From: Verrucomicrobiota bacterium
GTDB taxonomy: Bacteria > Verrucomicrobiota > Verrucomicrobiia > Chthoniobacterales > UBA10450
Length of the DNA: 64,000 nt
Direction of reading: 5' to 3'
Assembly (NCBI GenBank): GCA_039649045.1
Contig: JBBWZL010000010.1
Coordinates: 17,811-81,810, forward strand
Shown: in pieces, positions 4,918 through 55,100 of the stretch
How the letters are laid out: each line of letters begins with the position of its first letter
Position numbering within the stretch: position 1 is the first letter of the stretch
Position numbers and translations under genes: made by a program
Notes under the pieces: generated by a model
Told to the model about the DNA's origin: nothing
What the model saw: the letters and a program-made list of their open reading frames with translations, nothing else
The model's database searches: none

Positions 4918-4949
4918 TCAGAATCAGAGGTCAGAAGTCAGAGGTCAGA
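4918..4949 (+). repeat. heptamer word array (TCAGAGG/TCAGAAG) x ~4.5
   Basis: TCAG recurs at 4918, 4924, 4931, 4938 and 4945. The array fills the whole gap between the tRNA 3' end and the TTG start of the next ORF. Confidence 0.9.
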
Positions 4950-6530
4950 TTGAACCGGTTTCTTCGTGGCGGATTACGTGCGGCTGAGATCCTCATTTTC
5001 ACAGCGCTCATTCTCGGAACGCGTTGCGCGAATTATCAGGATGTCTTTGTCGGCGGCGACATCTATTTTACTGACGCTGATTGCTACTCGCGCATGACGC
5101 GCGCACGAATGTGCGCGGAACATCCGGGCCTCATTCTTCGCCATCATTCGTTTGAGAATTTTCCGGCGGGAACTACGCCGCACACGACGGCGCCCTTCGA
5201 TTATCTTATCGTCGCGCTCGCCGCGGCGCTGAAGCCGTTCACGGCGCGGGCGCTTGAGCTTGCGGGCGCGATTGTTTCGCCTCTTCTTGCCTTGCTCGGC
5301 GGGTGGTTTTTGTGGTGGTGGTCGCGCCGATCTGGATTGCGATATCGCGCCGGATTGTTGCTGCTTTATGCGGCGAGTCCCATTCTTGCCCACGGCGGCG
5401 AGCTCGGCCGGCCCGATCATCAGTCGCTTCTGATGCTGCTTCTGACGGTCGCGATTTGCGCGGAATGGACTTTGCAGACCGAACCATCGCGCAGATGGAG
5501 CTTGGTCAGCGGCGGCGCGTGGAGCTTTGCTTTGTGGGTATCGGTTTACGAGCCACTCATTTTGTTGTCGGTCATCCTTATTTCTCACGCGCTTTTCGCC
5601 CGGGAGAATTTCACGGCCCGATTTCGCGGACCGGGCTGGATTGTCTGCGGGATGATTGTCGCGCTCGTGCTCTTTATCGAACAACGGCTGCCCGGCTGGT
5701 CCGGCCTTGTCGCCGATCCGATCCTGGCGAATTGGGCGCGAACCATTGGAGAACTCAATCACGTCCCGGTCACCGACGTAATCTGGTTGAGCTGGGCCGG
5801 GCTGCTGCTCATTCCGCTTCCGGCGCTTCTCTGGATCGCCGTTCGAAAAACAAAAGCGGTTCCGCTTTTCCTGGCCGCGCTTTTGGTCGCGACGTTTGTG
5901 CTCACGGTCTGGCAGGCGCGCTGGGCTTATTTTTTTGTGACCATCTTCGCGCTGACGATCCCCGGACTGCTCGCAGTCGTTCCCGCGCGCCTCGTCGCGT
6001 ATGTCGCGATCGGCGTTTCGCTGTGGCCGGTCCTGAAAAACTGGGACGAGAAACTTTGGCCTAACGAGTTGGAAAATGCGCGTCGTTTTGAAAGCCGGTA
6101 CGAGGCGGCGAAATGGCGCGAAACAGCAAAGCTGCTTGTCGCAGAAACGAAAACCCCATTTCTGGCGCCGTGGTGGTGGTCGCCCTCGGTCGCGTATTGG
6201 TCTGGCCAGCCCGGCCTGGCTGGTTCATCACACGAATCGCTGGCCGGGATCGCGCAGAGCGCCCGGTTTTATCTCGCGCCGGATGCCGCCACGGCGCACG
6301 AGATCTTGATCACGAACAAGATCGAATGGGTGCTGGTTTACGATGCCGACCGCACGGTCCAGAATTCCTCGGCCCTTCTCGGCATTTCTCCGCCCGCCGA
6401 ACCGCTCGGTGGTGTCCTTGATCGCGCCCCCTCCCAAGCGCCTCGATTCCTCCAGCTGGTCTCTCAAAATGCGGTATGCAAACTTTTTCGGGTGCGATTT
6501 TCCGAGGAAAAAGAGGATTTCCCGAGGTAA
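4950..6530 (+). CDS. GT-C fold membrane protein, STT3/AglB-like putative oligosaccharyltransferase with degenerate WWDYG motif
   Basis: Multi-TM ORF with only a TTG start available. First-loop motif IYFTDADCYSRMTRAR (compare DPDxYYHxR of STT3/AglB). APWWWSPSVAYWSG sits at the WWDYG position. ARFYLAPDAATAHEILITNKIEWVLVYD resembles the STT3 C-terminal ..EILxxxxVxYVLV pattern. Confidence 0.55.
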   Translation: MNRFLRGGLRAAEILIFTALILGTRCANYQDVFVGGDIYFTDADCYSRMTRARMCAEHPGLILRHHSFENFPAGTTPHTTAPFDYLIVALAAALKPFTARALELAGAIVSPLLALLGGWFLWWWSRRSGLRYRAGLLLLYAASPILAHGGELGRPDHQSLLMLLLTVAICAEWTLQTEPSRRWSLVSGGAWSFALWVSVYEPLILLSVILISHALFARENFTARFRGPGWIVCGMIVALVLFIEQRLPGWSGLVADPILANWARTIGELNHVPVTDVIWLSWAGLLLIPLPALLWIAVRKTKAVPLFLAALLVATFVLTVWQARWAYFFVTIFALTIPGLLAVVPARLVAYVAIGVSLWPVLKNWDEKLWPNELENARRFESRYEAAKWRETAKLLVAETKTPFLAPWWWSPSVAYWSGQPGLAGSSHESLAGIAQSARFYLAPDAATAHEILITNKIEWVLVYDADRTVQNSSALLGISPPAEPLGGVLDRAPSQAPRFLQLVSQNAVCKLFRVRFSEEKEDFPR

Positions 6531-8028: not shown

Positions 8029-8448
8029 ATGCAAAAGCTGCGTCCACGCAGTCCCTACGAACGGCTCGGCGGTTTCGTCCATCTGCCGCGCTTGATCGAT
8101 AAGGCGAGGCTCCATCGCAAGGGATTGCTCGATGGCTACAACTACAAATCCACCGGGTTCGACAAGCATCTGCTCGCGTTCCTGAAATTGAATGCGGACG
8201 CGTTCGAAGAGGTGGCCCATCGTCTCGATGACGACGCAGCGATCCTCGATTGGGTCCAAGAAAATGGCGCGAAACATTCGCCCGAGGCGATCGAGCAGTG
8301 GAACGAAGCGATGATCGCGCGCCACCCCGATACCGCAGCGAAAAAAGCGCGCTTCCTCCATTTTCTTAAGGAAGCCGGCGGGTCCGGCCGCAAAGATATC
8401 CGCACTTACTTCGACCTGATCGAGTTCGACGAGGGGAGACTGAAATAA
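8029..8448 (+). CDS. DUF5069-domain protein
   Basis: N-terminal PRSPYERLGGFVHLPRLIDKAR pattern typical of DUF5069 (from memory). Confidence 0.6.
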   Translation: MQKLRPRSPYERLGGFVHLPRLIDKARLHRKGLLDGYNYKSTGFDKHLLAFLKLNADAFEEVAHRLDDDAAILDWVQENGAKHSPEAIEQWNEAMIARHPDTAAKKARFLHFLKEAGGSGRKDIRTYFDLIEFDEGRLK

Positions 8449-8451
8449 TTT

Positions 8452-9204
8452 TCAGCGCGCGAACTTTGCGAAAATCTGGTTCGCTTCTTCCAGCGTTTCT
8501 TTGCTGCCGATGTCGAACCAGGTGCCTCTGATCTGATACGCCTTCACCGGTTTGCGCTGGTAAAGCCACTGGATAAACCGACCGGGCTGATCCGGATTGT
8601 TGCCCGCGGCGATGTAGGTAGTGAATAGCGGAATGATCTCACGCGAAAAATAATAAAGCGCGATCCCGGCCATGGTGTTCTTCGGCTCGGCCGGCTTTTC
8701 TTCGAATTGGGTAATGACGCCGGCCGAGTCGATCGTGATGCTGCTGTATTTCTTGATCGCCTCCAGATCGCCGACATCGTAGGTCGCCAGGGTCGCCTCG
8801 GACCTCTTTGCTTCCCGCGCGAAATCGAGCAGCGGCTCGCTGAACAGATTGTCACCCGCGACGATGATTAGGTCATCCTTCGCCAATTCTTCGCGGGTGA
8901 TTACCAGGCAAATATCGCCGATCGCGCCGAGCTTGTCCGAATCGTCCGTCGAACCGTCGTCGATAATCTTGATCGCAAAGCCAGCTTTCTTTTTGCGGTA
9001 ATCCTCGGCCCACGCCTGAAAGTCTTTCACGAACTTGCTGTTCGTCACGACATAAACCGTTTCGAGATCGGGGACAGCCGCGAGATTATCGAGTACCCAA
9101 TCAATCATCGGTTTTCCGGCGACCTCGAGGAGCGGCTTCGCTTTATGCAAAGTCAGGGGATATAGCCGCGTGGCGTAACCGGCGGCGAGGATGAGAACAT
9201 TCAT
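8452..9204 (-). CDS. sugar-phosphate nucleotidyltransferase (NTP_transferase family)
   Basis: MNVLILAAGYATRLYPLTLHKAKPLLEVAGKPMIDW is the canonical G-x-G-T-R-L/PK-P-L N-terminus. Confidence 0.8.
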   Translation of the reverse strand: MNVLILAAGYATRLYPLTLHKAKPLLEVAGKPMIDWVLDNLAAVPDLETVYVVTNSKFVKDFQAWAEDYRKKKAGFAIKIIDDGSTDDSDKLGAIGDICLVITREELAKDDLIIVAGDNLFSEPLLDFAREAKRSEATLATYDVGDLEAIKKYSSITIDSAGVITQFEEKPAEPKNTMAGIALYYFSREIIPLFTTYIAAGNNPDQPGRFIQWLYQRKPVKAYQIRGTWFDIGSKETLEEANQIFAKFAR

Positions 9205-12029: not shown

Positions 12030-12034
12030 GGGAT

Positions 12035-12155
12035 CGTTGAATCGTTAAAGCGTTGAAGCGTTGAAGCGTTAAAGCGTTGAAGCGTTGAAGCGGGCGAGGA
12101 ACCAACGCCGTTAATTGTAACGCTTTTAACGCTTCAACGCTTTAACGATTCAACG
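12035..12155. repeat. octamer word hairpin (CGTTGAAG/CGTTAAAG x7, loop, complement x4)
   Basis: The outer 28 nt of the two arms (12035-12062 and 12128-12155) are perfectly complementary. The element fills the ntrC-like stop / glnD start spacer to within 5 nt on each side. Confidence 0.9.
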
Positions 12156-12160
12156 CCCGG

Positions 12161-26853: not shown

Positions 26854-26894
26854 AGGGGGAGGAATCTAATTAGAAATTACGAAGTAGAAAGTAG

Positions 26895-36825: not shown

Positions 36826-36854
36826 GTGACGCGTGACGAGTGACAAGTGAAGTG
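36826..36854. repeat. heptamer word array GTGACGC/GTGACGA/GTGACAA/GTGAAGT
   Basis: Four phase-locked units in the intergenic region. Confidence 0.8.
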
Positions 36855-36867: not shown

Positions 36868-36902
36868 GCCTTGCCAAGACGGAGCCTTGGCGGAGGCTGG
36901 AG
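36868..36902. promoter_or_regulatory. conserved GC-rich hairpin motif, copy A (GCCT-T-GCCAAG-N7-CTTGGC-GG-AGGC-TGGAG)
   Basis: Same architecture as 40653..40688 and 43400..43435. Lies ~150-185 nt upstream of PEP-CTERM gene 33502..36717. Confidence 0.5.
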
Positions 36903-37705: not shown

Positions 37706-37768
37706 CGAGGATCGAGGGTTGAGGATCGAAGATGGAGGTCGGAGGTCGGAGGTCGAGAGACCGAGAGG
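37706..37768. repeat. heptamer word array (CGAGGAT.., GGAGGTC x3, ..) ~9 units
   Basis: Constant 7-bp phase from 37706 to 37768, upstream of 37032..37634. Confidence 0.8.
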
Positions 37769-38777: not shown

Positions 38778-38964
38778 ACGCCAAGTCCTGTGCTGCAGTC
38801 AGAGCTCAGAGGTCGGAGTTAGGCCGTCCGATCGGAAGAACGAGCGAAGCTTCGGGGTCATTGGAATCTCCCGTTTCATACTTTGGTCACTCATGCTCCC
38901 ACGCTCGCGCCAGCTACGCTAGCTACGTGACCGCCTACCCGCTGGCTTCCCAGCTCAGCGTGTT

Positions 38965-40591: not shown

Positions 40592-40728
40592 TCAGAGGTC
40601 AGAGGTCAGAGGTTCGCCGCGGCGAACCCCGTCCTTCGGCGGATCGGAGGTCGGCCTGCCAAGCCAGAGCCTTGGCGTAGGATGGAGGAAGGCGACGCGG
40701 CCAGAGATCAGAGGTCGGAGGCCGGAAG
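40592..40728. repeat. mosaic spacer made of four elements
   Basis: Elements in order: TCAGAGG x3 (40592-40612), an 18-nt perfect palindrome GGTTCGCCGCGGCGAACC (40611-40628), GC hairpin copy B (40653-40688), and a TCAGAGG/TCGGAGG array (40701-40728). The two heptamer arrays are in direct orientation. Confidence 0.8.
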
Positions 40729-41738: not shown

Positions 41739-43274
41739 CTACGTCTTTATTCGCAGCCGGCGTCGCGACGCGAACGCGATCGCGCCGAGCGCGAGTGCGC
41801 CGCCGATCCAGGTCGCTGGCTCGGGGATCGCAGTCGGAACGAGGAGCAGATCATTGTCGCCGTACACGAGCGTGTAATTCGCGGGCATGTTATCGACGGA
41901 ACTGAACTGTCCGCTCCGGCCGAGATACGTGGCGAGGGTGTAGACCGTGAACCCATCCGGCGTCCCGACGAGGTCGAGATGGCTCGAGCCGGAGATGTTG
42001 AGGGTTCCCATGATCGCGAGAGTGTCGCTGATGTTGCCGATAATATTAGCCAGGTAAGTGGAGGTGGATTCGCCGCCGTTGAAGGTAACATTCTGGTTCA
42101 GGGTGAGTGTGCCGATGTGCAGCGTGCCTGTACCGGTCGCGGTGCCGCCGGTGATAATGCCATTTCCGACGGCGACCGAGCCGCCAATGGTGCCGGTGCC
42201 GCCGAGGGTGCCGGAATTAACCACGGACACGCTTCCGGTGGCGCCGGAGTTATTGCCGTTGATCAGGCCGGTGGCGCCGTTCAAAACTGTCGTGGCGCCG
42301 GTGTAGGTGTTCGTGCCGCTAAGAGTCACCACGCCGCTGGCGATGCCGACCCGCAGGGAATTGCCGGTGGTGCCGTTGCTGAGGACGCCGGTCACGTTGA
42401 CGACGCCGCCGTCGAATTGGATGAGCTTGTCGAATCCGCCGGCGCTGATGTTTCCGGAAAGGGTGAAGGCCCGGGTCGTGGAGTCGTTTCGAACCGAAAG
42501 ATAGTTCACGTTTCCAATGATGATCGGCGCCGAAACGGTGTCGCCAAAAGTGGCTACGGCTTGATTCAAGAGGCCGGTGCCCCCGCCGTTGTCAAAAGTG
42601 AGCGTGCTGCCGCCGCTGGCCGCGAGGGTATACGAGTTGCCGCGGAGTGGGTCGCCGATAAAGAGCTGGCCGACCGTGCGGCTCGTGTCCAGCGTAACGG
42701 TGACCGCGCCGGAAAAAAGAGGGTGGCTGTCCAGGTGGGCGATCGAGCCTGCGCCATCCGGAATAGCGAAGCCGGCCCAGTTTCCGAAGTTGCCCCAGTT
42801 TCCCGAGAAGTCGCTACTCCAAAAACCAATGGCAGCCGCCGGGGCGTCTGGAAGCAGCGAGGAGCTTGAGCCTGGGCTGCTGAGGAACGCGGGCGAACCA
42901 AACGCGCTCGGCCCATAAGGAGCGCTCGAGTCAGTTACAGCGGGCGCTGTCTGCTCCGTCATCCAGGCGGACGTGATCTCAGGCTGGGCGGGCGTCAGCG
43001 TCCAAGTGCGAGAGGGTCGCGAGAAGAGGAGACCATTTACGAGATGGCCCATCGAGAGCTGCGCTCGTGCGTTAGTTTCCAGCGGAGCGGGCGGGGCCAC
43101 GTCGGCGGTGTGGGCGTCGTTCAACGGCAGAGCGGAGAACCAAGAGCCCGGATAGGCAAAGTCGAGGTCGAAGGTATTGCTCCAGGTATTGTCGGCGGCG
43201 AGAATACCCCCGGCACAGGCGACGAGGAGCAGGCAACGAATGGGACGCCAAATGCCCTGTGCTGCGGGTTTCAT
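41739..43274 (-). CDS. PEP-CTERM-anchored PATR-repeat protein (paralog 2)
   Basis: The first 31 aa are identical to 38965..40518 and the N-terminal ~85-90 aa are about 80% identical overall. C-terminus IPEPATWIGGALALGAIAFASRRRLRIKT. Confidence 0.8.
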   Translation of the reverse strand: MKPAAQGIWRPIRCLLLVACAGGILAADNTWSNTFDLDFAYPGSWFSALPLNDAHTADVAPPAPLETNARAQLSMGHLVNGLLFSRPSRTWTLTPAQPEITSAWMTEQTAPAVTDSSAPYGPSAFGSPAFLSSPGSSSSLLPDAPAAAIGFWSSDFSGNWGNFGNWAGFAIPDGAGSIAHLDSHPLFSGAVTVTLDTSRTVGQLFIGDPLRGNSYTLAASGGSTLTFDNGGGTGLLNQAVATFGDTVSAPIIIGNVNYLSVRNDSTTRAFTLSGNISAGGFDKLIQFDGGVVNVTGVLSNGTTGNSLRVGIASGVVTLSGTNTYTGATTVLNGATGLINGNNSGATGSVSVVNSGTLGGTGTIGGSVAVGNGIITGGTATGTGTLHIGTLTLNQNVTFNGGESTSTYLANIIGNISDTLAIMGTLNISGSSHLDLVGTPDGFTVYTLATYLGRSGQFSSVDNMPANYTLVYGDNDLLLVPTAIPEPATWIGGALALGAIAFASRRRLRIKT

Positions 43275-43399
43275 CGTGAGCCGATTGAAATCAATTTGCC
43301 CACGCAGAGTCAATAGGAATCATGGGGAAAGTAGAAATTAGGAAGGAGGAGTTTCAGAGGTCCCGCCTTCGCAAAAGCTACGGCGTGGCGAGCACGGTC

Positions 43400-43435
43400 G
43401 GCCTGCCAAGCCGTAGCCTTGGCGTAGGCTGGAGG
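43400..43435. promoter_or_regulatory. conserved GC-rich hairpin motif, copy C (GGCCTGCCAAG-CCGTAGC-CTTGGCGTAGGCTGGAGG)
   Basis: Abuts the TPR gene stop (43436) and lies ~125-160 nt upstream of PEP-CTERM paralog 2. It could act as a terminator, a leader structure, or both. Confidence 0.5.
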
Positions 43436-45250
43436 TCAGCGGATGTTTTCGACAAGCGCGGCCTCCTCCGGCAAAAGCCGCTTCCGGTCGACCTCGCGCA
43501 TCTCCGTGGCTGCATCCTCGCTCCGCCCGTTCGCGGCCAGGACCGCGGCATGCACCGCCAGGGCAGACGGCGTCAACGCGCCGCGGGCGACCTGAATACC
43601 CGAATACGCATCCATTGCGTCGCTCAATTTTCCCAGGCGAAACCGCGCCAGAGCGAGCAGAGTCCGATGCGGCAGACTGGACGGCTCTCGCTGGACGAGC
43701 TGAGCAGCAAGTTGCTCAAGCGTTATCAGTTCTTGGTTATTTGTTACTCGTTCTGACCTCTGACTTCCGTCCTCCGACCTCTGCGATTGCTGCGCATTCA
43801 TGAGCAGCAATCGCGTATACGCTTCGTCGTTTTGCACCGCCGGGTCGTTAGGCCAGATCGCCAGCATCTCCGCGAGGACGGCATGGATTTTCTTGGTCTC
43901 GCCCGTGACCTGCGCGAGCCGCAGCCGGCCCTGGTGCGCCGCGCGCAGCCGGGGCGACTCGGCCACGGCCTCGTCGTAGGCAGCGCGCGCCACATCGGTC
44001 ACGCCATTTTTTTCCGCATAACCTGCGAGCGTAATCAGCTTGCCCGGATCGCCCCGGGCTGCCTCCAGCGCGCGCTGCCAATTATTTTCCGACGCGGCTT
44101 TTTCGCCGAGCTGTGCGTTGCAGCGCGCGAGATACATTTTCTGCACGAACGGATCGAGCGGGTAACGATCGCGATCGAGCAATTCCTTGATCTCTTTCCA
44201 GCGGCCGAGACCGCCGAGCGCATCGACGTATTGCAGGAAAAGCTCGCGCGATTGCAGCGCTCTCTCGATCGGGATGGCATCGAGCACGCGCTGGAATTCA
44301 CTCTTGCCATTCAACCACGTCGCGAGCGCCGCCGCTTCATCCGGTGTTCCATCTTTCCATTGCGCGACCGCTTTCGCGATCAGCTCGGCGCGCGTTTCAG
44401 GTTGCTGGCGCATCTTCAAATCGACCGCGAGCAATTTCTGCGGCGCGCGGGCGAGGGGATGCGCCTCGAGCTTTTCCGACAAATCGAGCGGCGCGATCGG
44501 GAAAGTTTCCGGGATTTTTTCCGATGAAAGCGCTGTCTGCGCCAGGACCGTGAGCGCATCGACCCCGGCGGCATCGCCCGTTTCCGATATTTTCTTCAAC
44601 CAGGACCAGGCTTCGCTGCGCCAGTTTTCGTTGCCCGCGGAAATCGCGATGTCCAGCAGCGCGGCCTGTAGTTTTCCCCGGCCGCTCGCCCGCGCATCGC
44701 CGAAAATTTTTTGCAACGCATCGTGCGCTTCGATAGCGGCGCCCTGCCGGGCGGAGAGTTGCGCCGAGAGCAAATAGTCCAACGGCATAACGGGGCCGTT
44801 CGTTCCACTGAGGAGCGCGCGGATCGCGCGGGTCGCGCGGGCATCGTCGCCCGCGAGTAGCGCGATGGTCGCCTCATCGGTGAGATCAACGCGGGTGAGA
44901 CGGGTGCGTTGCTCTAGCCGGTCCCAGAATTCCAGCGCCTGCGCCTGCCGGGTTCGCGAAAGAAAACGGGCGATGGCCCGAATCGCTTCCGGTTCGTCCG
45001 GCCACAATTGATAAGCGCTCGCCACTTCCTTGCGGGCTTCGTTCCAATCCTCTTTCTCCATCAGCGCAAAGGCCGTGCGAGCGTGGCGTCGCGCCTGCCA
45101 GGCCTTGATACCATGCAGGACAGGCCGCCCGCCGAAGATTCCGCCGAGCCCGAGAACGAGGACGAGGAGGAGCGCGACGATAATGCGTTTGCGCCTGCGA
45201 GTTCGAAGCCGCAGCTCCTCCTCGGTCAACATGAAGTCGTCGGCGCGCAT
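43436..45250 (-). CDS. membrane-anchored TPR-like repeat protein (possible exosortase-system accessory)
   Basis: N-terminal TM helix (IIVALLLVLVLGLGGIFGG), then a helical-repeat composition. Last gene of the exosortase operon. Contains an in-frame heptamer array (43753-43787) encoding SQRSEDGSQRSE. Confidence 0.65.
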   Translation of the reverse strand: MRADDFMLTEEELRLRTRRRKRIIVALLLVLVLGLGGIFGGRPVLHGIKAWQARRHARTAFALMEKEDWNEARKEVASAYQLWPDEPEAIRAIARFLSRTRQAQALEFWDRLEQRTRLTRVDLTDEATIALLAGDDARATRAIRALLSGTNGPVMPLDYLLSAQLSARQGAAIEAHDALQKIFGDARASGRGKLQAALLDIAISAGNENWRSEAWSWLKKISETGDAAGVDALTVLAQTALSSEKIPETFPIAPLDLSEKLEAHPLARAPQKLLAVDLKMRQQPETRAELIAKAVAQWKDGTPDEAAALATWLNGKSEFQRVLDAIPIERALQSRELFLQYVDALGGLGRWKEIKELLDRDRYPLDPFVQKMYLARCNAQLGEKAASENNWQRALEAARGDPGKLITLAGYAEKNGVTDVARAAYDEAVAESPRLRAAHQGRLRLAQVTGETKKIHAVLAEMLAIWPNDPAVQNDEAYTRLLLMNAQQSQRSEDGSQRSERVTNNQELITLEQLAAQLVQREPSSLPHRTLLALARFRLGKLSDAMDAYSGIQVARGALTPSALAVHAAVLAANGRSEDAATEMREVDRKRLLPEEAALVENIR

Positions 45251-45681
45251 CAGAAGTCAGAAGTCAGAGGTCGGAACTGCGGAATGATTCGTTCTTCCGT
45301 ATCATTCCGCCGAGCATTCGTCCGATCTCAGCGCCACGCGAAGTAAGTTGCTTATGTTGATCGTGCGAGATGTAACCGCACGCCAGGGCAAAATCGAGGG
45401 ATGAATCCGTTTCGCTGTTTTCAACGTCACAATCCGTCAGCTTGCTTAGAAAATGCGCTTCATAAGGTCGTTTGGCCCACGCTTCTCGGAGATTCAAACA
45501 GACAGATCTCGAGGATCGCCTGATTTGACTGGTCAAAGCGTATTTTTCTTCTGACGGAAAAGTTTTTGTGGCGTCAAAAATCTCCATCGCGAGCTGATAC
45601 GCGGATTTGTAAACCTCCAGATCCTTAGCCGTTTCAATCTTCACGCTTTCTGACCTCCGCTTTCTGACCTCCGACCTCCGG
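45250..45681 (-). mobile_element. IVS-like cassette: four-helix-bundle gene bracketed by inverted heptamer arms (45250-45277 and 45647-45681)
   Basis: The arms are 21/28 complementary. On the sense (minus-strand) RNA, 3 of the mismatches become G:U pairs. The cassette lies exactly between the exosortase and TPR ORFs. Calling it a mobile element is inference. Confidence 0.35.
45264..45644 (-). CDS. four-helix-bundle protein (23S rRNA intervening-sequence protein / Avd family, TIGR02436-like)
   Basis: KDLEVYKSAYQLAMEIFDATKTFPSEEKYALTSQIRRSSRSVCLNLREAW..FL..CDVENSET matches the family pattern. Trimmed to GTG 45644, which overlaps the exosortase stop by 11 nt. Its TGA stop lies inside the heptamer arm. 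Confidence 0.75.
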   Translation of the reverse strand: MKIETAKDLEVYKSAYQLAMEIFDATKTFPSEEKYALTSQIRRSSRSVCLNLREAWAKRPYEAHFLSKLTDCDVENSETDSSLDFALACGYISHDQHKQLTSRGAEIGRMLGGMIRKNESFRSSDL

Positions 45682-47376
45682 TTCAACCGTTTCCCTGAGG
45701 AGTTCTGCGAATTTGTCTTCGGCCATTTGATCGTCCATCGGTTGCGAGCTGACAAAAATCACTTCCAGAACTTGCTGCCCCAGATTCCGAATTCCATTTC
45801 GCACCGTCCGGAAACGCGCCTTCATGGACCAATCGGGCTGCACGCCTTCGGCGAGCTGTAGATCTGGCCGCGGCTCATCGGCGTGCGTCTTGTCTTCCTG
45901 CAAACAAAAAAACGTGTGCGCGACAGCGTTCCCGTTGCCCTGCCGAAAGGTGATGTGCCGCGCCACGATCGGAATATTCTCGCGCGCGAGATAAGTTTTT
46001 GCGCCGCGATCGGCGAGTTGCTGCCAGCCGATGCTCGGCAGGCAAATGTCCGGCCGGTGGGCCCGCGCCCGCAGCACGCTCGCGCTGCCTGGATTCCAGC
46101 GAAAGAAAAACAGATAATTGGTCGTCGAAAAACCGGGTGCGGCGTCTGCAATCGTTCTCCAAGTCACTTCGCGGCCCAAATCGAACCGCAATGTTTGCCG
46201 GACCGATTCATCGATTTTGATTTCGCGAAATCCCGGCGCCTTTTCCGGCGGACGAACACTCCAATTGCCGCGCGCAGTGAGATTCTTCTCATGCGCCCGA
46301 TACCACTCATGGGCTCCAGCTTCGACCGCAACGAGCCAGAGAAGGCAAAGGATGAAGGATGAAGGATGAAGGAGGAAGTGGGGCCGGAGGTCGGAGGTCG
46401 GCTCTGACTTCTGACTTCTGCCCTCTGCCCTCCGACCTCCGTTTCCGCCTTCCGCCTTCCGCCTTCCGCCTTTCTCCAACAACGCGGCGAGCAAGAGCGA
46501 GCCGCAGAAAACAGCCGCAACAATCGTGTATCCGGCAAAATCGTGCCATCGATCCACGGCCGAGATGCTTTGGGTCGCGGCGATCCAGACGAGGAAAAAG
46601 GCGCGCGCAAAGTTGGCGATGATGGCGATGGCCAGCGCGCCCAGAACAAGAAGAATTCGGCGCGTAACCGACAGCCGCTTCAGTTCGCCGAAGAGCAAGC
46701 CAATCATGATCGAAGTCTGCAATGAACGCACGCCGCTGCACGCTTCGTTCACGCCGACCAGGCCAGTGCTGACGCGGATGAGATTGCCTTCGAGTTGCGC
46801 GGGAATGCCGAAAAGGGTGATCGTCTCACTCGCCACCGCCGCGACGATCCGCATAAGGCCCTGGACGATTGGTTGCTCAATCGGAGAAACCCACGGCACC
46901 GCGACGAAAAAAAACGCGACGGGAAAAGCGAAATGCCGCACCCACGGTTTGCCGCCCGCCAACCAAAGCACGAGCAAAGTCATCGTCACCACCACGCCTG
47001 TGTGCACCCAACCCAGCGGCCGCCAATCCGGGTTCGCGATTTCAAACAACCGGATCGGCAACAGGAGCAGCAGCGCCCCAATTGCAATCGCGATCGCAAT
47101 TCCGCGTTTCCTCCTTCCTCCTTCCTCCTTCCTACTTTCCCCCCGATCGTCCCAGCGCAACCAAAACAAAAACAGCGCGAAGAACGGAACGAACCATCCG
47201 TAGCTGTATTGCTCGTTGTCCGACCACTCGCCGCTCAGTTGCCGGCAGAGAACAAACCAGAGCGCGAGCAATAACAGGCCCGACAGCAGAATCCTCGAAA
47301 GTTTGCTTCGGCGCACCGACTCTGGTTTCAACCGAATCGAAATGGCGTCGTTCACGGCGGGGCGAAGATATTCCAC
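45634..47376 (-). CDS. exosortase (PEP-CTERM type) fused to a C-terminal EpsI-like domain
   Basis: Multi-TM N-terminal half with NEACSGVRSL (catalytic Cys), ANFARA (Asn/Arg) and WHDFAGY (His) motifs. The C-terminal ~230 aa are EpsI-like. Three word-array segments are in frame (47110-47137, 46349-46474, 45647-45681). Confidence 0.85.
   Translation of the reverse strand: MEYLRPAVNDAISIRLKPESVRRSKLSRILLSGLLLLALWFVLCRQLSGEWSDNEQYSYGWFVPFFALFLFWLRWDDRGESRKEEGGRRKRGIAIAIAIGALLLLLPIRLFEIANPDWRPLGWVHTGVVVTMTLLVLWLAGGKPWVRHFAFPVAFFFVAVPWVSPIEQPIVQGLMRIVAAVASETITLFGIPAQLEGNLIRVSTGLVGVNEACSGVRSLQTSIMIGLLFGELKRLSVTRRILLVLGALAIAIIANFARAFFLVWIAATQSISAVDRWHDFAGYTIVAAVFCGSLLLAALLEKGGRRKAEGGNGGRRAEGRSQKSEPTSDLRPHFLLHPSSFILCLLWLVAVEAGAHEWYRAHEKNLTARGNWSVRPPEKAPGFREIKIDESVRQTLRFDLGREVTWRTIADAAPGFSTTNYLFFFRWNPGSASVLRARAHRPDICLPSIGWQQLADRGAKTYLARENIPIVARHITFRQGNGNAVAHTFFCLQEDKTHADEPRPDLQLAEGVQPDWSMKARFRTVRNGIRNLGQQVLEVIFVSSQPMDDQMAEDKFAELLRETVEPEVGGQKAEVRKRED
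46349..46474. repeat. 18 phase-locked heptamers (126 bp) forming an imperfect hairpin inside the exosortase ORF
   Basis: Units in order: AGGATGA x3, AGGAGGA, AGTGGGG, CCGGAGG, TCGGAGG, TCGGCTC, TGACTTC x2, TGCCCTC x2, CGACCTC, CGTTTCC, GCCTTCC x3, GCCTTTC. The core CGGAGGTCGGAGG and CCTCCGACCTCCG are perfectly complementary. Confidence 0.9.
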
Positions 47377-48496: not shown

Positions 48497-49270
48497 ATGT
48501 CATCCGGAGTTGCGGCGGGTTCGTCCGAAAGATTTCAGCAGATCCTCGGCATCCGCTTCTTCGATGGCACTCCGGCGGGGGCGGTCGCTTATCTCAAGCG
48601 CGTTGGCGGATACGTGGTTGTGCCCGCGGCGCCAGCGCTGGTGAAACTGCGTTACGATGAAGCTTTTCGCGCGGCGCTTGTGCAATCCGATCTCGCAATT
48701 GCCGACAGCGGATTGATGGTCTTACTCTGGAAACTTTTTGAACGCCGGCGCATTTCCCGCATCTCCGGGCTCGCTTACTTGAAGCGCCTTCTGGAGCTGC
48801 GGGAAATCCACGAGGCTGGAAAAGCCTTTTGGATTCTTCCCGCGGCATCCGCCGCCGAGAGCGCAAAGAAATGGCTCCGCGATGCGGGATTCGGCGTGTC
48901 GGACGAAGACTTTTACATCGCGCCTTTTTACGGAGCGGAGGTGAGCGACGAAGTTCTGGCTGCGGCCATCAATGCCCGGCGGCCCACCGACGTCATCATT
49001 GCCATTGGCGGCGGGCCGCAGGAAAAACTGGGATTATTCCTCCGAGACCATCTCGGATATCGCCCGGCCATCCATTGCATCGGGGCCGCGCTCGGTTTTC
49101 TGACGGGCGACCAGATCGCGATCCCGGATTGGGCCGACCGGCTTTACCTCGGCTGGCTCTTTCGCCTTTTCGCGCAACCGCGCGTGTTCATCCCGCGGCT
49201 CTGGAGTGCGCACGAGCTCCCATGGCTTATTTTCAAGTATCGTGAAAAACTGCCCCCCCTGAAAAACTGA
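48497..49270 (+). CDS. WecG/TagA/CpsF-family (GT26) glycosyltransferase
   Basis: ILGIRFFDGT..AVAYL...GGYVVVPAAPALV.. and ..VIIAIGGGPQEKL patterns. ATG 48497 preferred over TTG 48476. The stop codon lies inside the octamer array. Confidence 0.65.
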   Translation: MSSGVAAGSSERFQQILGIRFFDGTPAGAVAYLKRVGGYVVVPAAPALVKLRYDEAFRAALVQSDLAIADSGLMVLLWKLFERRRISRISGLAYLKRLLELREIHEAGKAFWILPAASAAESAKKWLRDAGFGVSDEDFYIAPFYGAEVSDEVLAAAINARRPTDVIIAIGGGPQEKLGLFLRDHLGYRPAIHCIGAALGFLTGDQIAIPDWADRLYLGWLFRLFAQPRVFIPRLWSAHELPWLIFKYREKLPPLKN

Positions 49271-49692
49271 AAAACTGAAATGCTGAAAGACTAAAAAATG
49301 CGCCTCCCAGAAGCGTTTCGAGAACGAACGAAAAAATATGCTTCAGCGATCATTCGGTTGTATGCGCAATTGCCGAGGACCCGGAAGGAAGTGGAAGTGT
49401 TGGGACATCAACTTCTTCGGTCTGGTACCTCAGTCGCAGCGCTCACCCGCGAAGCATCACGAGCTCGATCTGATGCTGAGTTCTGTTCCAAGATCGACGG
49501 AGCATTGCAGGAAGCGGATGAATCTCAGCTATGGATTGAACTTCTGCGGGAGGACTGCGGCATCGACGGCGCGCCTATCGAACACCTGCATCGGGAAACA
49601 AGCGAACTAATTGCGATCCTGGTAACAATGGCAAACAAGACAAAGCGCACTCTTAGATAATTTCAGCTTTTCAGTATTTTCGCGTTTCAGCC
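49259..49692 (+). mobile_element. IVS-like cassette: four-helix-bundle gene bracketed by inverted octamer arms (49259-49297 and 49661-49692)
   Basis: Left arm (CTGAAAAA x2, CTGAAATG, CTGAAAGA, CTAAAAAA). Right arm (TTTCAGCT, TTTCAGTA, TTTTCGCG, TTTCAGCC). 24/30 complementary. Sits exactly between the GT26 and carbamoyltransferase ORFs. Mobility is inference. Confidence 0.35.
49298..49660 (+). CDS. four-helix-bundle protein (23S rRNA intervening-sequence protein / Avd family)
   Basis: FRERTKKYASAIIRLYAQLP....VLGHQLLRSGTSVAALTREASRARSDAEFCSKI..ALQEADESQLWIELL matches the second common subtype of this family. Confidence 0.75.
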   Translation: MRLPEAFRERTKKYASAIIRLYAQLPRTRKEVEVLGHQLLRSGTSVAALTREASRARSDAEFCSKIDGALQEADESQLWIELLREDCGIDGAPIEHLHRETSELIAILVTMANKTKRTLR

Positions 49693-49699
49693 TTTGCCC

Positions 49700-51490
49700 A
49701 TGCTCATCCTCGGCCTCAATGCTTATCACGGCGATTCCGCGGCGTGTTTAATCAAGGATGGCCGGCTTGTCGCCGCGGCGGAGGAGGAGCGGTTTCGGCG
49801 CATCAAACATTGGGCCGGCCTGCCCACTCAGGCGATCGATTATTGCCTGCGCGAAGGCGGCGTCACGCTGCAGGACGTCGATCACATCGCGATCAATCGG
49901 AAACCTGGCGTGAACAACTGGCGGCGGCTTGCCTTTGTCCTGCGGCATCGGCCCGATCCGCGGTTGATGATGCAGAAAGTCCGCAACATTCGCAGCGCTT
50001 CATCGGTGCAGGAAGCTCTCGAGCGCGCCTACAAGGTGTCGTTAGGCGCCCAGGTCCATCACATCGAACATCATCTCGCGCATCTCGCCTCCGCCTTTCT
50101 CGTCTCGCGCTTCGACGAAGCGGCCTGCATTTCGATCGATGGCTTTGGCGACTTTGCCAGCACGGCGATGGGGAGCGGCCAGGGGAACCGGATCGCGATC
50201 GAGGAGCGCGTTTATTTTCCGCACTCGTTAGGCATCTTTTATTCGGCCCTGACCCAGTTCATCGGCTTCCCGCACTTTGGCGACGAATACAAAGTGATGG
50301 GCCTGGCGCCGCTGGGCGAACCGAAATATCTCCAGGAAATGCGCCAGCTCGTTCGGATCCAGCCGGACGGCACCTTCAAGTTGAATCTCAAATATTTCCG
50401 GCATCACACCGATAACGTTTCCTACACTTGGAACGACTGCGCCCCGGAAGTCGGCACGCTTTACACCGGGAAATTGAGCGAGCTGCTCGGATCCGAACGC
50501 GGCGAAGGCGATCCTCTCGAACAACGACACAAGGACCTGGCTCGCTCGGCCCAGGCGATGTATGAGAAAGCGTTTTTCGGTCTGCTGAACGCGCTTCATA
50601 AAAAACATCCTTCGCCGAACCTCGCGCTCGCGGGCGGGTGCGCGATGAACTCGGTCGCGAATGGCAAAGTCTATTTGCGCACCCCGTTCCGAAAAATGTA
50701 TCTGCCCGCTGCCGCGGGCGACGCCGGCGGCGCCATCGGCGCAGCGGCGGTTGTGCAAGCACAACTCGCGGAGGTCAGACGTCAGAAGTCAGAGGTCAGC
50801 CAGAGGCGCATCGCCTTGGACGATGCTTATAGCGGTCCGCAGTTCTCCGACGAGGAAATCCATCAACTGCTGCGAGATCGCGGCGTTGTCTCATCTGACC
50901 TCCGATCTCCGACCTCCGACCTCTCGGTCGAACACATGACCGATAGCAACGAACTTTGTCGCCGCACCGCAGCCGCCATCGCAGATGGCAAAGTCGTCGG
51001 TTGGTTTCAAGGACGGATGGAGTGGGGGCCTCGCGCTCTCGGGAACCGCTCGATCCTGTGCGATCCGCGGCGTTGGGACATGAAGGAAATTCTGAATCTC
51101 AAGATCAAGCGCCGCGAATCGTTCCGTCCGTTCGCGCCTTCGATTTTGCGCGAAGCTGTCGCCGAATGGTTCGAGCAGGACGATGACGTGCCCTTCATGA
51201 TGGAAGTCTTCCAAGTTCGCCCGATAAAACGCGCTTTCATTCCGGCGGTCACGCACGTCGATGGCTCCGGCCGGCTCCAAACCGTGCATCGCGAAACCAA
51301 TCCGCTTTATCACCATCTGATCTCCGACTTCTATTCGCTGACCTCGGTCCCGATGGTGTTGAACACCTCCTTCAACGAAAACGAACCGGTCGTTTGCCGC
51401 CCCGAAGAAGCGCTCGATTGTTTTCTGCGCACGAAAATGGATCTGCTCGTCATGGGCAATTTCCTGATCACCCGTTCGAACGCTCTCTAA
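49700..51490 (+). CDS. carbamoyltransferase (NodU/CmcH family)
   Basis: MLILGLNAYHGDSAACL.., EERFRRIKH, GWFQGRMEWGPRALGNRSIL.DPR, VTHVDGSGRLQTV. ATG 49700 preferred over TTG 49694. Two in-frame heptamer arrays at 50768-50802 and 50891-50925. Confidence 0.85.
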   Translation: MLILGLNAYHGDSAACLIKDGRLVAAAEEERFRRIKHWAGLPTQAIDYCLREGGVTLQDVDHIAINRKPGVNNWRRLAFVLRHRPDPRLMMQKVRNIRSASSVQEALERAYKVSLGAQVHHIEHHLAHLASAFLVSRFDEAACISIDGFGDFASTAMGSGQGNRIAIEERVYFPHSLGIFYSALTQFIGFPHFGDEYKVMGLAPLGEPKYLQEMRQLVRIQPDGTFKLNLKYFRHHTDNVSYTWNDCAPEVGTLYTGKLSELLGSERGEGDPLEQRHKDLARSAQAMYEKAFFGLLNALHKKHPSPNLALAGGCAMNSVANGKVYLRTPFRKMYLPAAAGDAGGAIGAAAVVQAQLAEVRRQKSEVSQRRIALDDAYSGPQFSDEEIHQLLRDRGVVSSDLRSPTSDLSVEHMTDSNELCRRTAAAIADGKVVGWFQGRMEWGPRALGNRSILCDPRRWDMKEILNLKIKRRESFRPFAPSILREAVAEWFEQDDDVPFMMEVFQVRPIKRAFIPAVTHVDGSGRLQTVHRETNPLYHHLISDFYSLTSVPMVLNTSFNENEPVVCRPEEALDCFLRTKMDLLVMGNFLITRSNAL

Positions 51491-52158: not shown

Positions 52159-55100
52159 TGTGCGGTATCGCAGCCATTTTTGGATACGGCGTTGATGCTC
52201 CACCGGTCGATCGTGATGAGCTGATCGCCATTCGCGATCGGATGATTCGCCGCGGGCCCGATGGCGAAGGCCTCTGGATCTCGGAGGATCGCCGCGTAGG
52301 CCTGGCCCATCGACGCCTCACGATCGTAGATCTCACGGACGCGGGCCTGCAACCGATGTGGACCAGCGATCGCGCGCTCTGCGTTTCGTTCAACGGCGAA
52401 ATCTACAACTATCCTGCGCTACGCGCGCAATTATCCGAGCGTGGTTATCAGTTCAGATCGAATTGCGACACCGAAGTATTACTCCATCTCTATGCCGAGA
52501 AGGGGCCTGAGATGGTCCACGATCTTCGCGGGATGTATGCCTTCGCCATCTGGGACGTAAAGCAGCGGAGCCTGTTTTGCGCGCGCGACCCCTTCGGGAT
52601 CAAGCCGCTTTACTATGCGGACGACGTCCGAACGATTCGCATCGCCTCACAGGTCACGGCTCTCCGGGCAGGAGGGCACATCGATACGACGCCTGAGCCT
52701 GCCGGGCACGTTGGATTTTTTCTCTGGGGCTCGGTGCCGGATCCGTTCACCCTTTATCGCGGGATCAGCGCACTGCCCGCAGGCCACACGCTCACAATCC
52801 GCGAAGGGGGCACACCCGAGATTCGTTCGTATTGTTTTATCCCGGATATCTTGCGTGAAGCAGAATTAGAGATCGGAGATCAGAAGTCAGAAGTCGGTGG
52901 GGAACAACGCGAAATTCTTCACGCCGCGTTGCGCGACAGCGCCGAGCATCATCTTATGGCCGATGTGCCGGTGGGCATTTTCCTTTCCGCCGGACTCGAT
53001 TCATCCACGCTCACCGCGCTGATCAGCGAACGGCATGAGGACGTCCGCACGGTCACACTCGGCTTCAACGAATACCGCGGCGGCGAACAGGACGAGACGC
53101 TGCTGGCGGAAGTGGTCGCGCGCACTTGCAAAACCAATCACCAAACCATCTGGGTCACGCGCCGTGATTTTGAAGGAGACGCCGCCCGGCTCTTCGAGGC
53201 AATGGACCGGCCGACGATCGATGGCGTGAACACCTATTTCGTCAGCCTCGCGACCAGGCGGGCCGGACTGAAAGTGGCGATCTCCGGCCTGGGCGGCGAC
53301 GAATTATTCGGCGGTTACCCCAGTTTCCAGGATGTTCCTCGCATCGCCAACCGACTCCGCCATTTCCGCCGATTCGGAAAACTTGCGCGCGGCTTTCGCA
53401 TCGTAACGCAGGATGTGATCAAACATTTCGCTTCGCCGAAGTACGCCGGAATTTTCGAATACGGCTCGAGTTATCCCGGCGCCTATTTGTTGCGCCGCAG
53501 TCTTTTCATGCCGTGGGAACTCCCCGAATTTCTCGACCCGGAATTGGTGCGCGAAGGCTGGGCGCGCTTGAACACTTTCGGCGAGTTGGCGGGGATTTGC
53601 GATTCGCTCGATTCCGAGCGGCTCAAAGTCTCGGCGCTCGAACTTTGCTGGTATATGCGCCACCAGCTTTTGCGCGATTCCGATTGGGCCGGCATGGCCC
53701 ATTCGCTCGAAATCCGCGTGCCGCTCGTCGATGTGAAGCTGCTGCGGGAAATTGCGCCCTTGCTCGCTTCGCCGCGCCCGCCTGGAAAACGCGACATGGC
53801 GTTGTCTCCCCGCACGCCATTGCCCGAAGCGGTCCTCTCTCGTCCAAAGACCGGTTTCACCATGCCGGTGCGCGACTGGCTTTTGCAATCGTTCGATCCC
53901 CTGTCGGCCGGCGAACGTGGTCTGCGCGGTTGGGCGCGTTACGTCCATGGTGAATTCGTGCAGGACTCCGGCGCGGCCTCTACGGTCTTGCGCCGCTCGC
54001 GCGCCACGCGCGCTCGTGCCACTGGCGCGCGCAAAATTTCACGGATCCTTGTTTATCGCATCGGCCAGCTCGGCGACACCATCGTGGCGTTGCCCGCCAT
54101 GTGGGCGATAAAGGAAAATTTTCCTGACGCGGAGCTGACGCTGCTTTGCGATCAACATCCGCACACCAACTACATTCTCGCTTCCGGCCTGCTGCGAGAC
54201 GCCGGAATATTTCACGATTTCCTGGCGTATCCGGTGGAGAAACTTGGCACCAGCTCTGCGCGCCGCGCGACTGAGCTCGTGAAAAAATTGCGCGAACGGA
54301 ATTTTGATACCCTCGTCTATCTGGCCCCATCGGCTCGAGGGCCGGGGCGCGTCCGGCGCGATCGCTGGTTTTTCCGCGCGGCCGGCATCCGCACTTTTAT
54401 TGGGATGACCGGTTTCCCGCGGTTTCAGAAAAGGACCAGCGGCGCCGCGCTCGCCAGCGCCCCGCGCGAATTCGAATTATTGCTCCTGCGTCTGCGTGAA
54501 TCCGGGTTGCGTGTCTCTTTGCAAAATCCACGCTTCGACCTCGGGCTCGGCCAGCGCGAAGAAACAGACATAGCGCGCTGGCTCGAGACGCAACCTCAAC
54601 CCGACGGCCATCGTCGCTGGATTGCGGTAGGCCCGGGATCCAAAATGCCGGCGAAGCAATGGCCCCTCGAACGTTACGACCAGGTCGTGCGCGATCTGAT
54701 TGCCGGCTTCGACATCTGGCCCGTCGTTTTCGGCGGGGAAGAGGACCGCGAGATTGGCGATGGATTGATTGAGCGCTGGGGTCGCGGCTATAACGCCGCC
54801 GGCGCGCTCGGTGTTCGCGCCGCTGGCGTCGCCTTAAAACGTTGCGAGCTTTACCTCGGCAACGACACCGGCACGATGCACCTCGCTGCCGCCGCCGGCA
54901 TCCGGTGCGTTGCCGTCTTCTCGTCACGCGAGCGTCCCGGTCTGTGGTATCCTGCCGGAAGTGACAACCGCGTTTTCCGTTCCGAGATCGACTGCGAAGG
55001 ATGCGGCCTGAAGGTGTGCATCACTCGAAACATCGAATGCCTTCGCCGGATTGATTCACAATCGGTCACGGCTGCGTGCACCGAGCTGCTGGCTGGTTCG

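Follow-up and report, generated by a model that had tools for sequence, protein, structure and literature searches.

In a 64,000-nt stretch of the metagenome-assembled genome (MAG) of a Verrucomicrobiota bacterium (contig JBBWZL010000010.1 of assembly GCA_039649045.1, positions 17,811 to 81,810; hereafter, the window), we found short tandem arrays of 7- or 8-nt words, concentrated in a locus encoding PEP-CTERM proteins, an exosortase and extracellular polysaccharide (EPS) functions. These arrays are probably the arms of palindromic "tandem-word hairpin" elements of the intervening sequence (IVS) type, located outside rRNA in this Chthoniobacterales-like locus, and it is very likely that their architecture corresponds to that of IVS stems. 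The elements share one plan, namely, from 5' to 3', several units of a purine-rich 7- or 8-nt word, a cargo gene or a loop, and several units of the complementary, pyrimidine-rich word. Two of them carry a gene of the PF05635/TIGR02436 family, here called IVP-A and IVP-B, and the gene subtype tracks the word, with CTGAAA(A/R) octamers accompanying IVP-A and TCAGAGG heptamers accompanying IVP-B. Arrays outside these cassettes use the same words, either as gene-less hairpins or as single arms. The rRNA IVS that contains an open reading frame (ORF) is known; new here are IVS-type tandem-word hairpins outside rRNA, which link heptamer repeats with PF05635 genes.

A period-autocorrelation scan of the window (G+C content, 58%) detected 16 period-7 and 5 period-8 arrays, as compared with means of 0.3 (maximum 2) and 0.2, respectively, in 20 dinucleotide-preserving shuffles, which bears out the non-random phase-locking reported in the initial annotation of this DNA. 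The same scan detected 0 to 3 arrays for each of the periods 4-6 and 9-13, and Tandem Repeats Finder (TRF), run independently, recovered the same period-7/8 arrays. Thirteen of the 16 period-7 arrays were located between 36.5 and 53 kb, a region representing 26% of the window (binomial p = 5e-6), where 7 or 8 of the ten spacers held an array; the enrichment around the exosortase/EPS region had been correctly perceived. The arrays drew on a small common vocabulary, as had also been proposed (TCAGRRG, GTAGRAA, CTGAAAA(R) and CGTTRRR(G)), and no such arrays were present in glnD, pgi, icd or the BNR giants. When the 28 intervals initially given as more than 25 arrays were reread in phase, about 24 were clear (period-match fraction ≥0.64) and the remaining few were weak. 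Interval 8440-8455, described as an octamer array, is actually a short palindrome; 43341-43354 had a period-match fraction of 0.43; and 26884-26897, 27112-27125 and 43327-43340 have only a pair of units apiece. As for the "long octamer arrays" at 12035-12155 and 28685-28771, each comprises two inverted arms and a loop rather than one array of 11-15 units. Overall, the inverted pairing of arrays was confirmed by their complementarity and by predicted folds. According to Rfam, the window contains only two tRNAs and no rRNA, and the elements sit between or inside protein-coding genes.

The suggested link with TIGR02436 genes proved decisive. Both such genes in the window were exactly bracketed by inverted arrays; this bracketing had been overlooked, as had the second gene (45264-45644). 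The IVP-A product matched PF05635 (E=4.6e-14), TIGR02436 (70.8 bits, for a cutoff of 24) and the PDB entry 2RLD (E=3.8e-16), a structure with five chains; exact-product look-ups found no record identical to it, nor any identical to the icd product. In the minimum free energy (MFE) fold, 49259-49297 paired with 49661-49693 as the closing stem of the cassette. WecG takes its last codons and its stop from the first units of the 5' arm (49259-49270), and the ATG of the carbamoyltransferase gene begins 8 nt past the 3' arm. IVP-B, for which an identical 126-aa product is on record (P0121), matched PF05635 (E=1.8e-28), bAvd (E=1.3e-11), TIGR02436 (94.6 bits), and both 2RLD and 2GSC, with five chains each. 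Its closing stem comprises 18 bp between 45250-45277 and 45647-45681 (fold z=-3.2). The 5' arm falls within the last codons of the exosortase ORF, where it encodes the exosortase C-terminus, and it also provides the GGAGG found 9 nt ahead of the IVP-B GTG start. The 3' arm encodes the C-terminal "SSDL" of IVP-B, and the TGA of its first CCTCTGA word is the stop codon of the gene; a CCTCTGA word likewise supplied the stop codon in the IVP-B-type loci L293-L298.

The association between gene subtype and word extended to relatives of both genes. Among 42 metagenomic loci with an IVP-A relative (best-segment identity, 55-93%), 28 had full flanks, of which 24 exhibited two or more CTGAAA-type words on the upstream side and two or more TTTCAG-type words on the downstream side. 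The mean number of words in the expected orientation was 5.0 upstream and 4.3 downstream, versus 0.5 and 0.2 in the opposite orientation. The neighbours of these cassettes varied (WecG, AsnB, exosortase, FkbM, or none of these). TCAGAGG heptamers flanked all of the IVP-B-type genes (9/9). Four IVP-B relatives were chosen by protein similarity and long contigs alone, their DNA not having been viewed beforehand: all four had (TCAGAGG)n and (CCTCTGA)n arms and all four were located in polysaccharide or exosortase loci. IVP-B copies with TCAGAGG-type arms were found in loci L001, L032, L081, and L115, and at least 7,982 homologues of one IVS-protein subtype were counted. We also observed that several IVP-A cassettes (L146/L147, L150, L126/L127) were accompanied by a further CTGAAA/TTTCAG hairpin, itself complete, or by another set of arms. 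Single arms of IVP-A relatives mixed CTGAAAA heptamers with GCTGAAAA octamers, which suggests that the 7- and 8-nt forms interconvert.

The same gene junction carries different elements in different relatives. The junction between the TPR and exosortase genes held IVP-B both in the window and in L001 (TCAGAGG arms of 63 and 66 nt), and a third subtype, IVP-C, with GTAGAAA arms in L003. The junction between WecG and the carbamoyltransferase gene was occupied by the IVP-A cassette in the window, by an ORF-less GTAGAAA hairpin in L003, and by a half-element in L001. The pairs L001 and L002, and L003 and L004, were compared for strain polymorphism and showed no differences. GAGCGA-rich sequence adjoining the IVP-C gene in L003/L004 (about 4470-4580) resembled the repeats of a region of the window (26854-27245) whose edges are marked by GTAGAAA words. 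This region holds two direct repeats of 71 nt (26895-26965 and 27040-27110; GGAGCCGGCGGGAGCCGAGCGACATAGACG...GAGCGAGCGGGAGCGAGCGAATCA), 99% identical, with a related unit in between.

Among 79 arms flanking PF05635 genes, the best period was 7 or 8 in 72 (periods 5-11 searched), and arm length ranged from 2 to 10 units, with a median of 3.8 and no peak at the five units that would match a pentamer. Over 46 cassettes, ungapped alignment of the arms gave 976 Watson-Crick pairs out of 1102 positions (~89%), complementary arms being typically 15-40 nt long and up to 60 nt. For stems of the window, fold z-scores ranged from -3.2 to -11.3. Among the genomes and viral contigs listed, pairs with the purine arm first outnumbered the reverse order by 58 to 7 (p = 4e-11), the purine-first order being the polarity of gene-carrying cassettes; this shared polarity would be explained if the purine arm was originally the ribosome-binding region of the cargo gene. 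Loops of 180-870 nt without PF05635 were searched for an alternative cargo, and their contents were mixed (ordinary genes, low-complexity sequence, or nothing).

The architecture was found well beyond the window. A scan of a genome collection for three TCRGARG units returned at least 119 stretches, for a chance expectation of about 17 in the whole collection (uniform-composition estimate). The matches listed belonged to Verrucomicrobiota and other members of the Planctomycetes-Verrucomicrobia-Chlamydiae (PVC) group, Acidobacteriota, Bacteroidota, Cyanobacteriota, Planctomycetota, Pseudomonadota, Desulfobacterota, Nitrospirota, Actinomycetota, and Chloroflexota; TCAGRRG hairpins were present in more than ten phyla, as well as in viral contigs. 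The 810 kb surrounding the listed stretches contained 387 period-7 arrays, versus 13-63 for other periods. Where neighbouring TCAGRRG arrays in these genome loci were paired, the purine arm preceded the loop and the pyrimidine arm in 33 pairs, and the order was reversed in 3; the loops were mostly of 5-95 nt and mutually unrelated. PF05635-type matches amounted to nine stretches in eight of the listed loci, and seven of the nine were bracketed by inverted 7/8-mer arrays with various words. Bracketed PF05635 genes were found in Desulfosarcina, Ignavibacteriales, and Pyrinomonadaceae, and isolate genomes with this architecture included Xanthomonas sp. Leaf148, Epilithonimonas mollis DSM 18016, and Kiritimatiellota B12222. 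At least 120 TCRGARG stretches were found in viral contigs, with 501 period-7 arrays in 1.12 Mb; the listed stretches included 25 pairs with the purine arm first and 4 reversed, and none had a PF05635 homologue.

A tblastn search against plasmids located the gene family mainly in Nostoc, Calothrix, Trichormus, and Scytonema. All six plasmid copies inspected (from Nostoc, Trichormus, Calothrix, Picosynechococcus, and Riemerella) had inverted 7/8-mer arrays tight on the ORF, the arms of one Riemerella copy being ~7-8 nt long. Finished plasmids with the architecture included pCC7120gamma of Nostoc PCC 7120, pNPUN02 of N. punctiforme, plasmid C of T. variabilis, and Riemerella plasmids. The first 50 kb of pCC7120gamma contained four period-7 arrays, forming two pairs with the purine arm first, one of which surrounds a PF05635 gene. 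On the same plasmid (L172, 12999-15490), inverted heptamer arms surround an ISL3-family transposase gene together with a four-helix-bundle gene, which looks like an insertion sequence (IS) inserted within a cassette. On a plasmid of Picosynechococcus sp. PCC 7003 (L170, 357-784), a four-helix-bundle gene with GGAGATA/TCTCCTA arms was inserted between cas10/cmr2 and cmr3, within a type III-B operon of the clustered regularly interspaced short palindromic repeat (CRISPR) system, with ~35-nt spacers on either side.

The initial annotation stated that no standard feature class explained the arrays; this no longer holds, given that 23S rRNA IVSs with an ORF have a matching architecture, as seen in locus L036 and in Coxiella (PMC4990558). 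In L036, from a member of the Rhodospirillales, a PF05635 ORF lies inside the 23S rRNA gene (Rfam LSU, 296-3551) and is bracketed by (GACAGAN)5 and (NTCTGTC)5. A TCRGARG x3 array was also observed in this IVS-bearing operon (3613-3633), in the spacer between the 23S (end 3551) and 5S (3715-3829) rRNA genes. For the helix-45 IVS of Coxiella, Warrier et al. 2016 (PMC4990558) describe tandem GACAGAT heptamers ahead of the S23p ORF, with a unit number that varies by strain and with RNase III cutting at the first repeat; the S23p protein itself is apparently not produced in Coxiella (PMC4990558). Like the 23S rRNA IVSs of Coxiella (helix 45, S23p) and Leptospira, two of the window elements have PF05635/TIGR02436 cargo. 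As in ORF-containing IVSs, the inverted repeats at the two ends pair into a long stem that encloses the ORF, and, as in Coxiella, whose GACAGAT word is shared by L036, tandem heptamers lie between the base of the stem and the start codon. In contrast to 23S rRNA IVSs, which are inserted in helix 9, 25 or 45, the window elements are located outside rRNA, either between the protein-coding genes of an EPS/PEP-CTERM locus or within them; the majority have no ORF, and some are translated into host proteins. RNase III excision has been demonstrated for the rRNA versions only.

The elements also resemble other repeat families. Short tandemly repeated repetitive (STRR) sequences are hosted by heterocystous cyanobacteria and have the canonical words STRR1-3. 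The analogy with STRRs drawn in the initial annotation was apt, since plasmids of Nostoc, Trichormus, and Calothrix carry genes of this family between heptamer arrays of the same type. Both are degenerate short tandem heptamer arrays, mostly intergenic and in many copies per genome, and the taxon range of STRRs and other heptameric simple sequence repeat (SSR) families overlaps that of PF05635 genes; however, the host here is verrucomicrobial, as its gene content had initially suggested (close relatives of the MAG carry a Chthoniobacterales annotation), and the words differ from those of STRR1-3. Heptameric SSR families described elsewhere include GGGNATC in Xanthomonas and Nostoc (PMC4692102) and TAACTGA in Beggiatoaceae, cyanobacteria, and Bacteroidetes (PMC4679880), the published TAACTGA set consisting nearly entirely of direct repeats upstream of start codons (PMC4679880). 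Here, by contrast, inverted pairing dominates and the words differ. Unlike those of the GGGNATC family, the window words contain no GGG tracts (criterion: at least four G-tracts of at least three G), so that no quadruplex is expected. In the open-access literature, which misses many subscription-journal papers, we found no description linking heptamer families or STRRs to PF05635 genes outside rRNA or to IVS stems.

Rickettsia palindromic elements (RPEs) are selfish palindromic DNA found in frame within protein-coding genes; their consensus, of ~100-150 bp, is conserved over its full length, and tandem-word arms are absent. The window elements are like RPEs in that in-frame palindromic repeats add a tolerated peptide at surface or linker positions, and differ in that only the words are conserved, the loops being unrelated and the inserts 20-130 nt long. 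The features of miniature inverted-repeat transposable elements (MITEs), of repetitive extragenic palindromic (REP) sequences, and of RPEs were not found, as loops were unrelated between copies and no target-site duplication was present at the junctions read; moreover, Pfam scans of the main window ORFs detected no REP-associated Y1 transposase. The initial exclusion of CRISPR, IS, and REP sequences was sound: the units of 7-8 nt lie head to tail with no spacers, whereas CRISPR arrays have direct repeats of 24-48 nt and unique spacers of similar length, and neither IS termini nor a conserved REP-type consensus was seen. Intrinsic terminators were also rejected, since the heptamer stems are not followed by a U-run. 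Finally, the cargo proteins are homologous to Avd, a four-helix bundle (PMC10053308) of diversity-generating retroelements (DGRs), with a Pfam match to bAvd and a sub-threshold match to NF033474. Unlike in DGRs, the Avd equivalog score was 39.8 for a cutoff of 80; no template/variable repeat pair was seen, and no reverse transcriptase was detected in Pfam scans of the main window ORFs, the small ORFs having been scanned non-exhaustively.

At least eight arrays are predicted to be read in frame within ORFs, in agreement with the number initially given: three in the exosortase (N-terminal loop, interdomain linker, and C-terminus), two in the carbamoyltransferase linker, one in the AsnB-GT9 linker, one in TPR604, and one in the tail, at the 3' end, of a PATR/PEP-CTERM ORF. 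The hairpin at 46348-46474 is an in-frame part of the exosortase-EpsI interdomain linker. As judged from the translations, these arrays add hydrophilic peptides of low complexity, placed in loops, in linkers, or at C-termini where orthologues differ from one another. In an alignment of 29 carbamoyltransferase orthologues (78-91% identity), both array sites were indel hot spots with "SEVR..." and "SDLRPPT..." peptides of variable length, and four orthologues carried neither insert; the array sites of three exosortases varied likewise. The frame was kept through the arrays in 29/29 carbamoyltransferases and 3/3 exosortases. In the window, 50891-50925 can pair with 50768-50802 (fold z=-4.1). We considered that this pair might be one element split by a conserved coding block, which was ruled out by the carbamoyltransferase orthologue P0005: there, site 1 holds a whole hairpin and site 2 an arm of its own, which indicates that the window arrays are two independent insertions of one word family.

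The other window elements are listed in Table 1. Among the gene-less hairpins, that at 12033-12156 showed 97% complementarity over 31 nt and a fold energy of -68.2 kcal/mol (z=-11.3), and the order of variant units in one arm was mirrored in the other. The loop of the hairpin at 28685-28771 was examined as a possible remnant of the IVP-A gene, a possibility that was rejected as the arms alone aligned. The two arrays at 40592-40612 and 40701-40728 formed no hairpin with each other (fold z=+0.7), and (CCAACGT)x5 reads CGTTGGA on the minus strand. The genes of the window comprise first those for an S8 peptidase, bactofilins, glnD, a sigma-54 response regulator, pgi, two BNR/PKD giants, and icd, and then those for PATR/PEP-CTERM proteins, a TPR protein, the exosortase-EpsI fusion, an epimerase, WecG, the carbamoyltransferase, methyltransferases, and AsnB-GT9, with more EPS genes.

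Table 1. Cassettes, gene-less hairpins, and single arrays of the window, with positions counted from its first nucleotide.
Feature	Position	Strand	Evidence or context
IVP-A 5' arm, purine-rich, (CTGAAAAN)x5 octamers	49259-49297	+	Scan, in-phase reading
IVP-A gene, annotated 23S_rRNA_IVP, four-helix-bundle "23S rRNA intervening sequence protein"	49298-49660	+	
IVP-A 3' arm, pyrimidine-rich, (TTTCAGCN)x4	49661-49693	+	In-phase reading, fold
IVP-B 5' arm, purine-rich in minus-strand sense (GGAGGTC/GGTCAGA words)	45647-45681	-	In-phase reading, fold
IVP-B gene, 126 aa, GTG start	45264-45644	-	PF05635, TIGR02436, bAvd
IVP-B 3' arm, pyrimidine-rich in minus-strand sense	45250-45277	-	Abuts TPR604 ATG
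ORF-less hairpin, (CGTTRAAG)x7 and (CTTYAACG)x4.8 octamer arms, loop ~25 nt	12033-12156	-	Between sigma-54 response regulator and glnD
ORF-less hairpin, CTGAAAAR/TTTCAGC words as in IVP-A cassette	28685-28771	+	Between PNP and DUF3829; fold z=-3.4
ORF-less hairpin, (AAGGATG)4(CGGAGGT)2 opposite (CTCTGAC)5(TTCCGCC)4	46348-46474	-	Fold z=-3.4
Single array, (TTCCTCC)x4, translated "ESRKEEGGRRKR"	47108-47137	-	Exosortase N-terminal loop
TCAGRRG array, translated "EVRRQKSEVSQ"	50768-50802	+	Carbamoyltransferase linker, hypervariable indel site 1
Complementary CCTCCGA array, translated "SSDLRSPTSDLS"	50891-50925	+	Carbamoyltransferase linker, indel site 2
Single TCAGRRG array, translated "LEIGDQKSEVGG"	52866-52900	+	Between GATase and Asn-synthase domains of AsnB-GT9
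Single TCAGRRG array, translated "QRSEDGSQRSE"	43750-43787	-	Within TPR604
Single TTTCAGC-type octamer array	33492-33531	+	Overlaps last codons and stop of PATR/PEP-CTERM gene 33502-36717
Two neighbouring single arrays, (GTAGRAA)x5 and (CCAACGT)x5	36577-36677	+	At or just upstream of PATR/PEP-CTERM 5' end
Single array, (GTGACRA)x4	36826-36854	+	
Degenerate single array (CGAGGAT...GGAGGTC x3)	37706-37768	+	Antisense to and upstream of ORF 37032-37634
Three-unit TCAGRRG array	38798-38818	+	21 nt past stop of ORF 37968-38777
Two direct-orientation TCAGRRG arrays (40592-40612 and 40701-40728)	40592-40728	+	Either side of a PEP-CTERM leader motif copy
Single TCAGRRG array	4918-4949	+	3 nt past tRNA-Met (4843-4915)
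Marginal GTAGAAA/GGAAGGA words	43327-43354	+	Between PEP-CTERM leader hairpin and start of gene 41739-43313; period-match 0.43-0.86

Taken as IVS-type elements, the arrays can be placed in a simple scheme. Once transcribed, the arms would form duplexes of 15-35 bp that could serve as RNase III substrates or as decay barriers, as shown experimentally for rRNA IVSs; such duplexes might divide operon mRNA into segments or make it more stable, and keep the cargo gene insulated. That RNase III processes the elements in mRNA is a tentative proposal, made by analogy, which we hold to be somewhat doubtful. Slippage would alter the number of units, and gene-less hairpins and single arms would have arisen from gene-carrying cassettes by deletion or erosion, or would be non-autonomous copies of them; from the words that they share, the descent of gene-less copies from cassettes seems to us evenly poised. 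Turnover at junctions could proceed via recombination between arrays or through a homing process, perhaps involving the cargo protein. A more far-reaching possibility, which we consider rather unlikely, is that PF05635/TIGR02436 proteins are pentameric relatives of Avd that recognise their own arms, perhaps with one 7-8-nt word per protomer. Together with the arms, they would then constitute undescribed, widespread, self-propagating cassettes, for which the rRNA IVS is just the best-known landing site; gene-less hairpins would be MITE-like derivatives, partly carried between phyla by phages, and the cassettes would underlie much of the heptanucleotide excess, including STRRs.

Several observations weigh against the interpretation of the arrays as arms of IVS-type elements. 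No IVS gene was found beside ~20 of 25 window arrays, ~110 of the 119 listed genome loci, and all 120 listed viral loci, so that the descent of gene-less hairpins is deduced from shared words and polarity. Moreover, 7 of the 13 TCAGRRG arrays in the window had no partner. Stem mismatches showed no excess of G·U (40, versus 47 A·C on the sense strand; p=0.52), and sense and antisense duplex energies were equal in cassette stems; there was thus no positive sign of selection on a coding-strand RNA stem, and a palindrome acting at the DNA level fits equally well. For the copies inside ORFs, RNase III cleavage cannot be the fate if the host genes are expressed. Neither target-site duplication nor a transposase was seen, which leaves the spread of the elements with no mechanism.

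Some of these points would suit autonomous repeats of the STRR type, generated in place from proto-repeats by slippage, with inverted partners arising from template switching (quasipalindrome correction) and PF05635 genes being secondary passengers in existing loops. Many arrays are indeed single and most have no PF05635 gene; phage-derived contigs with hundreds of arrays have no PF05635 homologue, stem mismatches are strand-symmetric, and the 3' end of WecG natively reads CCGCCGCTGAAA, a possible proto-repeat for the CTGAAA array. We nevertheless find this origin unlikely, because one word family extends across more than ten phyla, the polarity is 58 to 7, and gene subtype is matched to word over dozens of loci. 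In addition, the rRNA arrays were clearly imported by the element, because helix 45 natively has no arrays. Quite improbable, in our opinion, is a mobile element acting at the DNA level, in which RNA structure would be incidental and the arrays would be terminal inverted repeats of a MITE- or transposon-like element, or single-stranded DNA hairpins for a recombinase acting in trans. The differences in junction occupancy among relatives, the RPE-like colonisation of ORFs in frame, the symmetry of mismatches between strands, and the presence of elements in viral contigs would all be compatible with it. However, no transposase or recombinase gene was found within, or regularly beside, the elements, target-site duplication was not seen at the junctions read, the arms differ in length (2 to 10 units), and the loops are not conserved, unlike those of MITE families.

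The arrays might also be contingency loci, in which gain or loss of a 7-bp unit shifts the frame or promoter spacing and renders surface polysaccharide and PEP-CTERM expression phase-variable. A unit length that is not a multiple of 3, a surface-polysaccharide locus, and a unit number that varies among orthologues and Coxiella strains would be expected in that case; yet the units are degenerate, unlike the homogeneous tract of a contingency repeat, so that slippage would be suppressed, all 29 carbamoyltransferase orthologues and the 3 exosortases stay in frame, and the arrays lie in linkers, not near 5' ends. The predominance of inverted pairs and the occurrence of the same elements in rRNA and beside housekeeping genes make this explanation still harder to sustain, and we judge it highly improbable. 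An assembly or sequencing artefact, which had been put forward as a possible refutation, may be regarded as negligible. The source is a MAG and the identical records L001/L002 and L003/L004 are not independent confirmations, but a sequencing read is longer than any of the arrays, the architecture recurs in finished isolate plasmids and isolate genomes, and it has been described in sequenced Coxiella strains (PMC4990558).

If the elements are IVS-type hairpins, one phenomenon may join the excess of heptameric repeats (STRR and similar), the role and spread of rRNA IVSs, and a very large uncharacterised four-helix-bundle family. This linkage makes several properties testable, namely word-specific protein binding, RNase III cutting in mRNA operons, and cassette homing to hairpin loops. 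The elements generate hypervariable in-frame linkers in enzymes, and mark polysaccharide loci as turnover hot spots. They also overlap the stop and start codons of their neighbours, and stop-free arrays can lengthen mechanical ORF predictions.

Some additional features of the window were observed. Assuming that the PATR/PEP-CTERM gene starts at 36717, the GTAGRAA array (36577-36614, minus sense) would encode the hydrophobic "LLPTSYFLLSTF" of a putative signal peptide. The two tRNA-Met(CAT) genes (3539-3611 and 4843-4915), 1.3 kb apart, are alike upstream; the former is followed on its 3' side by a GC-rich hairpin, and the latter at once by a TCAGRRG array. Repeats with periods of 12-84 nt (ACNGCNACNCCN-type) were found in both BNR/PKD giant ORFs (20115-20394 and 24501-24699), where they encode Thr/Ala/Pro-rich segments; these are ordinary coding repeats, not related to the 7/8-mer arrays. 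Finally, the motif AGCCTTGGCGNAGGNTGGAG was present in three plus-strand copies (36883-36902, 40668-40687, and 43415-43434; 0.06 expected) and in none of 171 fetched loci. Each copy precedes a PEP-CTERM gene (starts 36717, 40557, and 43313) by ~100-170 nt and is antisense to it. The motif belongs to a stable hairpin (43361-43433; z=-5.4 for 43322-43437, minus strand) and may act as a leader or regulatory element common to PEP-CTERM genes.

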